This document shows positions 36,781 to 36,973 of a stretch of DNA of 64,000 nucleotides, in pieces; within the stretch, counting starts at the first letter, position 1; each line of letters starts with the position of its first letter. This DNA comes from Eledone cirrhosa (taxonomy: Eukaryota). The notes under the pieces were generated by a model. It searched no databases. It was not told where the DNA came from and saw only the letters and a program-made list of their open reading frames with translations. The stretch lies in assembly GCA_964016885.1 (NCBI GenBank), contig CAXHJY010000998.1, positions 1-64,000 of the forward strand, read 5' to 3'. A program made the translations under genes and the position numbers.

Positions 36781-36782
<2 letters not shown>

Positions 36783-36969
36783 CAAAGGAATTGTGGTAAG
36801 GAACCAGATGGACCATAACGCACCAGAGTACTCAATACTTAGGAACTTCTTTATAAGGAAGTACCCCCTTGACAAGTTCGGCTATTTATTCACCAGGTTA
36901 AAAATTCTAATTTAGTCCAGAAAGAGCCGTCGAAACGGCTTGAGCTCTGCCGTCGGGGTCATACTTTTT

Positions 36970-36973
<4 letters not shown>
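36781..36973. mobile_element. Family B element (inverted tail plus hammerhead arm)
   Basis: Minus-strand 3' tail at 36781-36843 joined to a plus-strand ribozyme arm ending TTCCTA; (TA)n on both sides. Confidence 0.75.
36859..36966 (+). ncRNA. Type I hammerhead ribozyme, U3-A8 core variant (family B, best copy)
   Basis: Stem I AAGTA-c-CCCC / GGGG-tca-TACTT; core TTGACAA (36869-36875); stem II G..CGGCT../..AGCCG.C; GAAA (36932-36935); stem III ACGGC/GCCGT with GAGCTC palindrome in loop; GUC cleavage triplet (C36954). Confidence 0.8.

Follow-up and report, generated by a model that had tools for sequence, protein, structure and literature searches.

Short units in TA-rich DNA of Eledone cirrhosa contain what is predicted to fold as a hammerhead ribozyme with an unusual U3-A8 pair in its core. 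The locus studied here, a 64-kb window (64,000 nucleotides, the whole stretch of DNA analysed), raises the questions of what kind of element dispersed these units and whether its ribozyme cuts RNA in the living animal. The link between hammerheads and Penelope-like elements (PLEs) is already known, as is the U3-A8 core itself. The available part of the 2014 paper on PLE hammerheads gives no in vivo evidence of cutting (PMC4209133). What is new here is the share of genomic ends that start exactly at G1.1, the base that follows the predicted cut site.

RESULTS

Window copies and their anatomy

BLAST with three copies, combined with a covariance model, located 16 stubs of the family in the window (5787-6200, 16679-16875, 26011-26166, 35434-35505, 36782-36972, 38776-38978, 42690-42861, 46845-46934, 47084-47187, 52034-52226, 52257-52373, 53822-54017, 56168-56208, 58402-58597, 58663-58862 and 59527-59721). 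An initial annotation had counted about 16 copies, nearly all in TA-rich tracts and carried by a mobile TA-targeting element, and this description stands: the majority lie inside (TA)n, and the stub at 56168 lies outside it. A 24-mer from the tail end matches 12 times in the window against 0.00 expected. The whole hammerhead motif is present in 3 of the 16 stubs, scoring 118-127 bits with a covariance model whose own building set included these three full copies. Their cores, UUGACAA or UUGAGAA, lie at 6031, 36869 and 38873, as annotated.

The annotated non-coding unit does have a length of roughly 200 bp at 36782-36971, but it actually consists of an inverted tail and a sense stub that meet head to head. 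To the right of a (TA)n target tract (36730-36781) lies the inverted arm (36782-36843, minus strand), identified by homology as 62 nt of the ~75-nt PLE tail, which occurs in sense orientation 3' of the hammerhead in genomic copies. This arm terminates at the distal 3' end (RT start site 2) and contains a GTATTGAGTAC motif at 36828-36838. A 7-nt filler occupies the arm junction (36844-36850), homology to the 6013 copy beginning at 36851, and is followed by the sense stub (36851-36971, plus strand).

In the sense stub, on the plus strand throughout, the stem I 5' side (36857-36868) is made up of the GGAA outer helix at 36857-60, AAGUA at 36859-63 and a C-run at 36864-68, with the inner pairing at 36865-68/36955-58. 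The catalytic core U3-U4-G5-A6-C7-A8-A9 (36869-36875) leads into a long stem II (36876-36931; G10.1 at 36876, C11.1 at 36931), which consists of the G10.1-C11.1 pair, a 2x1 internal loop, a 9-bp helix interrupted at 36924, an internal loop and a distal 7-bp hairpin at 36896-36917. Next come G12-A13-A14 (36932-36934) and stem III, ACGGC/GCCGU with A15.1-U16.1 (36935-36953; pairing 36935-39/36949-53), whose 9-nt loop contains the palindrome GAGCUC (36942-47). The predicted scissile bond C17/G1.1 falls at 36954-36955, where genomic 5' ends pile up at G1.1; GUC and C17 had been placed correctly, with the cut after C36954. The stem I 3' side (GGGG ... UUCC; 36955-36971) runs to the proximal 3' end, RT start site 1, and the right (TA)n tract (36972-37010) opens with a TAT that equals the element's own next three bases.

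A second insertion of the same subfamily (5787-6200) pairs an inverted tail-bearing arm (5787-5958) with a sense arm that contains a complete but damaged hammerhead (core 6031-6037) and a partial tail; the damage is G10.1>A plus one stem I mismatch. Because its repeats are variable-length inverted arms attached to an RT frame, the TIR-like look of this insertion was rejected as a sign of a MITE or DNA transposon. The third insertion (38776-38978) belongs to a sister subfamily with the majority core CUGAGAA, unlike its own core UUGAGAA (38873-38879), and has one stem I mismatch. The 36869 copy differs from its subfamily by T>G at 36924 and C>T at 36898, and its minimum free energy (MFE) fold departs from the three-helix fold. 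For both 36869 and 6031 the MFE structure is a decoy hairpin that buries GAAA (z = -1.2 and -2.3); the 38873 copy folds with z = -0.2. The window copies are decayed and the 36869 RNA is predicted to misfold, which makes 36855-36975 a poor choice as the test substrate originally suggested.

The retroelement behind the stubs

The stubs represent the 3' end (pseudo-LTR plus tail) of a Penelope-like retroelement of 3.0-3.5 kb, and are truncated on the 5' side and folded back. In the 30 best genomic matches the upstream extent is variable and two 3' ends are fixed, one directly after UUCC and one about 75 nt further downstream, with (TA)n after both. Upstream, the longer genomic copies continue into a reading frame that has RT motifs and, at its C-terminus, an endonuclease. 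What had been proposed as a mobile ribozyme family is the pseudo-LTR end of an autonomous PLE, a class known for hammerheads. Copies of the element end number over 20,000 in the 3.0-Gb genome; exact patterns found 6008 motifs reaching from stem I to stem III, and 20,079 tail-bearing ends among subfamilies with one common 3' block, with 0 matches to the controls in both cases.

A protein search revealed a young subfamily with identical endonuclease scores and many 784-aa stop-to-stop frames, in which the first Met gives a 717-aa RT/GIY-YIG protein (L157:1457-3607) with the motifs FDIE, MGATDS, YRDD and IY..YIG. One tandem array (L157-L158; G000:C1:437.20-437.21 Mb) has a period of 3531 bp and holds five ribozymes and four open 784-codon frames; this array and the many near-identical copies at other sites suggest that the element is active now or was so very recently. 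The frame also stays open over the 67 codons that precede the first Met, a stretch that takes in loop III and the tail (L157:1256-1456), and part of this stretch is likewise open in an older subfamily (L031:3052-3200); the extension could be a chance feature or a non-AUG extension. Separately, four near-identical loci about 44 kb apart (L055-L058; G000:C2:338.33-338.47 Mb) make up a large tandem segmental duplication.

PLE traits present in the element include pseudo-LTRs from tandem or partial-tandem copies, inverted 5'-truncated arms, an optional tail and the hammerhead. Over 621 aa, its protein has 40% identity with an Apostichopus protein, the cluster of which contains a stretch identical by eye to the published Hydra-1_Ajap. 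Among its Atlas neighbours, RVT_1 and GIY-YIG are assigned to part of the members. Searches of Pfam and of PDB sequences gave no direct match to the 717-aa protein, despite over 470 relatives; family libraries are blind to Hydra-type PLE proteins.

The Hydra clade, in the part of its description available (Craig et al. 2021, PMC8557442), is marked by DKT, RWK, a CxCX5C linker, CxxC and CxH, the lack of CCHH, TA targeting and a CUGAnGA core described as universal. The present element has DKT for DKG (HSDKTGN) and (TA)n insertion, and inspection of the endonuclease and linker identified CNCPDRSIC (CxCX5C), CNLC (CxxC), CKH (CxH) and one Cys between IY and YIG; CCHH was not found by inspection of the 717-aa protein. 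As in Hydra-clade elements, Hydra-1_Obim and Hydra-1_Ajap among them, the endonuclease is C-terminal, CxxC and CxH surround conserved E and N, the arms are inverted and 5'-truncated, the tail is optional and a type I hammerhead lies near the 3' end. RWR occupies the RWK site here and in 4 of 5 aligned full-length homologues, RWK being found in the fifth. In contrast to the CUGAnGA core and short stems in every Hydra/Repbase row of File S2 of that source, the present motif has U3-A8, a multi-helix stem II of ~55 nt and a stem III of 5-6 bp with a 7-9 nt loop, and C3-G8 is limited to 7 sporadic copies among 2831 pattern matches. The unit is also longer (3.0-3.5 kb versus generally <3 kb), as is the tail (~75 nt versus 30-40), and by eye the element and Hydra-1_Obim are different families. 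The Naiad clade, which targets TA and lacks a canonical hammerhead, was ruled out by the C-terminal endonuclease. On these sequence characters the element is Penelope-like and Hydra-type by protein; formal Hydra-clade membership is withheld because the core departs from the canonical one and the classification was made without a reference RT tree.

The tail motif GTATTGAG(C/T)AC (window 36828-36838) recurs below the hammerhead in relatives of 37% protein identity, and was located in L354 (about 2340-2350) and in Hydra-2_Amil. Lying between the two 3' ends, it is a candidate protein-binding or RT-initiation signal; folding found no common structure around it.

The predicted ribozyme fold

In intact copies, folding and alignment place three helices around the core with the ends in stem I, the arrangement of a type I hammerhead. 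The predicted fold, with U3-A8 and a free N7, is as first described. U4, G5, A6, A9, G12, A13, A14, A15.1-U16.1, H17 and G10.1-C11.1 are conserved, both pairs being present in 40-41 of 43 rows. The AAGTA/TACTT outer pairing assigned to stem I holds in one subfamily, to which it is confined, but the outer helix common to all is GGAA/UUCC. The palindrome GAGCUC of loop III is kept in all subfamilies. No recognised motif for a loop I-loop II tertiary contact was identified in the element hammerhead.

A structure alignment of 44 copies from ten subfamily groups (L289 and L112 (insertion) left out) gave 82.6% paired cells, versus 34-49% in slid controls, and two-sided change in 54 cells versus 28 in shuffles. 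Covariation among genome-wide copies, which had been proposed as a check, is present in stem II, where three pairs are compensated between old and younger subfamilies, but in this alignment there is no two-sided change in proximal stems I and III, and none at the 3-8 pair within the family. The signal appears to derive largely from a single old-versus-young split, and kinship alone can beat such shuffles. RNAalifold recovers stems I, II and III unaided. Among eight subfamily representatives, the MFE structure is the three-way junction for L157, L271 and L185, and essentially so for L015; it is a decoy for the other four (L063, L191, L199 and L091). The youngest subfamily has gained A10.2-U11.2 and a stem III G.U, both of which weaken the decoy.

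Queried with the motif alone, Rfam returned no hammerhead family at E up to 10, and with the whole window the rows listed contained microsatellite noise alone. The motif is thus missed by standard descriptors, as had been claimed, but the U3-A8 core had been published already, in PLE hammerheads among others, so that the headline of the initial annotation becomes a new instance of a known thing. In the accessible parts of the sources, U3-A8 is described as active in vitro in natural hammerheads (2011; PMC3088659), pairwise mutagenesis of a type III hammerhead found the 3-8 pair rescued by a G-C swap alone, with low activity in the other 3-8 mutants, which would include U-A (PMC9901934), and metazoan PLE hammerheads are poor cleavers (PMC4209133; PMC6765202). 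By analogy, a slow ribozyme would fit a core that is active in vitro yet low in mutagenesis, and the poor cleavage of PLE hammerheads.

Core states across the genome

A pattern with the flank GTTYGGCT fixed matched 2831 motifs, of which 2208 are U3-A8, 588 are C3.A8 and 35 have G8 (27 U3.G8, 7 C3-G8 and 1 A3). A wider pattern, scored by eye on the first 100 motifs listed, gave 78 U3-A8, 20 C3.A8 and 2 G8. The approximate shares are U3-A8 78%, the C3.A8 mismatch 20% and U3.G8 1% of motifs, and in an independent DNA run C at position 3 makes up 25% of the depth. The UUGAnAA core expected genome-wide is indeed the majority state, but about one-fifth of motifs have C3 opposite A8, which in part is the outcome named beforehand as speaking against the initial reading; N7 is not the sole varying core base, as positions 3 and 8 vary too. 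A search that left the core free gave 2813 matches (control 2); among the first 100 listed, scored by eye, U4 was present in 98, G5 in 94, A6 in 95, A8 in 98 and A9 in 94, and N7 took all four bases. Between subfamilies N7 changes and positions 4, 5, 6, 9, 12-14, 15.1, 16.1 and 17 are constant. A Watson-Crick 3-8 pair, as U-A, is found in both the oldest and the youngest subfamilies as well as the window copies, and is absent in the C3.A8 subfamilies.

The subfamily tree was built from upstream sequence only, using the 86 of 210 copies with at least 800 homologous upstream bases (83 after duplicates were removed). It forms a ladder, with starred support along the trunk, from U3-A8 (including the window's subfamily, tips about 0.025) through C3.A8 to U3-A8, where the youngest tips are about 0.001. 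An older, more diverged family has 117 matches; of the 100 listed, about 94 are U3-A8 and about 6 U3.G8 by eye. The root was placed on the older-family side because this family has upstream characters in common with the U3.G8 branch, a placement argued from tip lengths and common characters rather than computed, with the older family outside the tree. An order C-G > U.G > U-A was dropped, as the older family is mostly U3-A8 and linked to the U3.G8 branch. On this rooting U3-A8 would be old in the element, U3.G8 and C3.A8 would be excursions, and the trunk would have returned to U3-A8. The published Hydra hammerheads, metagenome relatives (L353-L355, L357 and L359) and a second family in the window have C3-G8, so U3-A8 is derived, with an origin that predates the sampled subfamilies. 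As to why U3 arose, we infer from the pairing model that C3, beside the four-C run, could slip into the stem I G run; RNAalifold picks the slipped stem I register.

Genomic 5' ends at the predicted cut site

Reverse transcription of a cleaved RNA is expected to run off at G1.1. Ends were sampled as the first matches listed on one chromosome, with no random draws. Among tail-bearing ends in which the base before GGGG is not C (50 of 998 sampled), 32 of 50 proved to be true 5' ends at G1.1, the remaining 18 D-GGGG matches being point changes or partial; this extrapolates to about 639 copies (Wilson 500-757), or about 3% of tail-bearing ends. At G1.2, 10 of 40 were true ends (40 of 660 sampled; about 165 copies, 94-265), and over the 25 bases upstream there were ends in 6 of 30 C-GGGG matches (30 of 18,421 sampled), or about 150 per base. 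The G1.1 peak is therefore about fourfold over neighbouring bases.

The inverted partner arm lies outside the pattern's selection. Of 22 such arms, 14 terminate precisely at G1.1 and 3 more include one further base, so that the C17 base is part of at most 3. At the G1.1 junctions, 1-6 untemplated, mostly A/T bases stand between the arms. Nine further G1.1 ends adjoin plain TA or unrelated DNA, and one is joined to an internal ORF piece (L335). In the control set 3 of 8 partner arms likewise end at G1.1, and L164 provides one unselected example of such an end. Junction symmetry alone was dropped as proof of cleavage, being common at other sites too. The 3' blocks occur in C3 as well as in U3 subfamilies, and L230 is the only G1.1 end whose block is C3-associated. 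The single RNA run examined gave one contig, outside the hammerhead motif.

The main 5' truncation zone lies elsewhere. It covers the positions from -45 to -34 relative to the cut site (about 36910-36921 in the window) and is sharply bounded at -45. In this 12-base zone, on the stem II 3' strand, 41 of 105 bystander arms end, or ~3% per base, and junctions there often run through short palindromes and are frequently near-symmetric. RT stalling in stem II is the probable cause. No true G1.1 end was found among the 105 bystander arms (about 3 expected; the arms are not independent), and the 11 long copies all start at positions other than G1.1.

A structural RT stop at the three-way junction is the main rival to a cleavage reading of the peak. 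In its full form it holds that the hammerhead is dead or nearly so, that the fold is a scaffold for protein binding or RT initiation, and that the G1.1 ends are structural stops. The per-base height of the stem II zone equals that of the G1.1 peak, so structure alone makes strong stops here; the symmetric stem II junctions (L234, L236, L255 and L258), however, use short palindromes, whereas the ends at G1.1 stop there rather than at C17 and with untemplated bases. C3.A8 subfamilies sit on the trunk and make up about one-fifth of full motifs, as a dead scaffold would permit, yet position 3 went back to U on that same trunk, and the unpaired core bases stayed fixed across subfamilies while N7 turned over. 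Passage of 97% of ends through the cut site, the location of RT start site 1 at the base of the outer stem I helix and the failure of U-A to rescue in one mutagenesis (PMC9901934, in its accessible part) also speak for the scaffold, which on the whole we consider unlikely. The copies that begin at G1.1 may instead record, as a kind of fossil, that the RNA is cut in the living animal.

DISCUSSION

Proposed mechanism

We regard it as reasonably probable that the autonomous TA-targeting PLE behind the stubs has a weak or slow type I ribozyme, by which a minority of templates is cleaved in vivo, cleavage being dispensable for insertion. The element protein would nick (TA)n and start RT internally on the element RNA, at two positions 3' of the hammerhead that lie 17 and about 91 nt past the cut site and each offer a UAU to which the nicked TA primer could anneal; the 3' ends are observed, and the nick-priming step is modelled on the accessible account of Poseidon-Ac (PMC11167929). 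Two cDNAs, one per start site and usually cut short, would be joined head to head, a putative route to the fold-back anatomy observed in the ~200-bp stubs. The ribozyme would be slowed by U3-A8 in place of C3-G8, by the long stem II and by a decoy hairpin competing with the active fold, and most templates would be copied uncleaved. A minority would be cleaved at C17/G1.1; RT would run off the new 5' end, add a few untemplated bases and yield dead-end insertions with arms of 17 nt and 91 nt, cleavage being the presumed cause of the G1.1 peak that is observed. With insertion free of a need for cleavage, C3.A8 subfamilies could spread, and selection or drift would have brought the trunk back to U3-A8.

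A less probable reading than the dead scaffold makes cleavage an essential and regulated step: multimers would be cut to unit length, by a monomer or by a dimer formed via GAGCUC, and re-ligated circles would serve as templates, so that inserts seem uncleaved. A circle-template model of PLE hammerheads is proposed in PMC4209133, in the part available. Tandem arrays and copies longer than one unit would suit it, as would the loop III palindrome kept in all subfamilies, and the A10.2-U11.2 pair and stem III G.U of the youngest subfamily, which weaken the decoy; prolific C3.A8 subfamilies with predicted misfolding sit badly with it. The G1.1 footprint could be counted as cleaved RNA meeting RT, but 0 of 11 long copies start there, and cleavage of Poseidon-Ac is dispensable in vitro (PMC11167929, as far as accessible). 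We hold essential processing to be improbable. That the family is a standalone, retrozyme- or SINE-like mobile ribozyme of ~200 bp is hardly credible, and is refuted as a general reading: no window copy adjoins a coding frame and stubs outnumber long copies, but the motif runs without a break into a 3-kb coding element, and the stubs have variable 5' ends, inverted arms and no tandem monomers, and mostly lack the ribozyme 5' half.

Relation to known systems

The closest precedent for the core is found in the Cercyon PLEs of Schistosoma mansoni (Cervera and de la Pena 2014, PMC4209133), which in the available text also have U3-A8 in the PLE pseudo-LTR, with about 1,300 matches overlooked by the standard descriptor, and likewise G10.1-C11.1 and a palindromic loop III. 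The Cercyon motifs are minimal and without a stable stem III, whereas the present motif can fold as a monomer. Cercyon is another PLE lineage, and an independent origin of U3-A8 is therefore probable. Unlike here, no C3.A8 interlude or genomic cut-site footprint is reported for Cercyon in that part of the paper.

Poseidon-Ac of the green anole (Frangieh et al. 2024, PMC11167929, in its accessible part) resembles the element in its two internal RT start sites below the hammerhead, which define a tail, in its AT-rich target and in insertion from uncleaved RNA; its cleavage is described as protein-assisted, and dispensable, in vitro. Its core is C3-G8, in contrast to U3-A8 here. Its RT start is reported as non-homologous to the target, whereas both ends here have TAT in common with (TA)n (window 36972-36974 and 36779-36781), and no reads at the cut site are reported for it, whereas genomic copies begin at the cut site here. 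Animal non-LTR retrozymes (bioRxiv 10.64898/2026.07.22.740005, as far as available) also have a type I hammerhead derived from a PLE pseudo-LTR and many short non-coding copies. They are tandem ORF-less units with a full ribozyme each, however, and the stubs are truncation products of an autonomous element; identity with retrozymes was rejected on this ground.

A genomic cut-site footprint was not found in a literature search that left subscription papers mostly outside its reach; nor, in the same partial literature (including PMC3884650 and PMC6155905), was the present family, a non-canonical core in the Hydra clade or a C3.A8 interlude with return.

Implications

That the genome is a readable record of germ-line cutting by a PLE hammerhead, with hundreds of insertions made from the 3' cleavage product and the share per subfamily measuring activity in vivo, falls in our judgement slightly short of an even chance. 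If this is true, the lineage path U3-A8, U3.G8, C3.A8, U3-A8 would follow the activity of natural core variants through time, and a prolific retroelement would have run several subfamilies on a mismatched core. The subfamily ladder offers naturally occurring core variants against a single sequence background, and the G1.1 junction peak is a DNA-only test that could be applied to every PLE family in whatever assembly contains it. The whole lineage escapes Rfam, Pfam and CUGAnGA descriptors, and hammerhead and PLE counts in such genomes are consequently too low.

Other sequences in and around the window

A second Hydra-type family is present in the window at 7950-8137, 53267-53310 and 46914-47030. 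It has a canonical C3-G8 hammerhead (core CUGAUGA at 8090, predicted cut after A8128), folds back in TA and also has a tail with a GTATTGAGTAC motif; for the footprint test it can serve as a naturally occurring control. At 51867-51895 a further family has left a minimal CUGAAGA...GAAAC hammerhead-like remnant with stem I unpaired. At 1306-1694 there are 1.9 copies of a 209-bp repeat that resembles an abundant octopus short interspersed repeat. By eye, we take L033:6831-7772 (-) and L024:2152-2835 (-) to be LINE fragments, of an RT and an endonuclease respectively, and L032:3-677 (+) to be a DNA transposase fragment.
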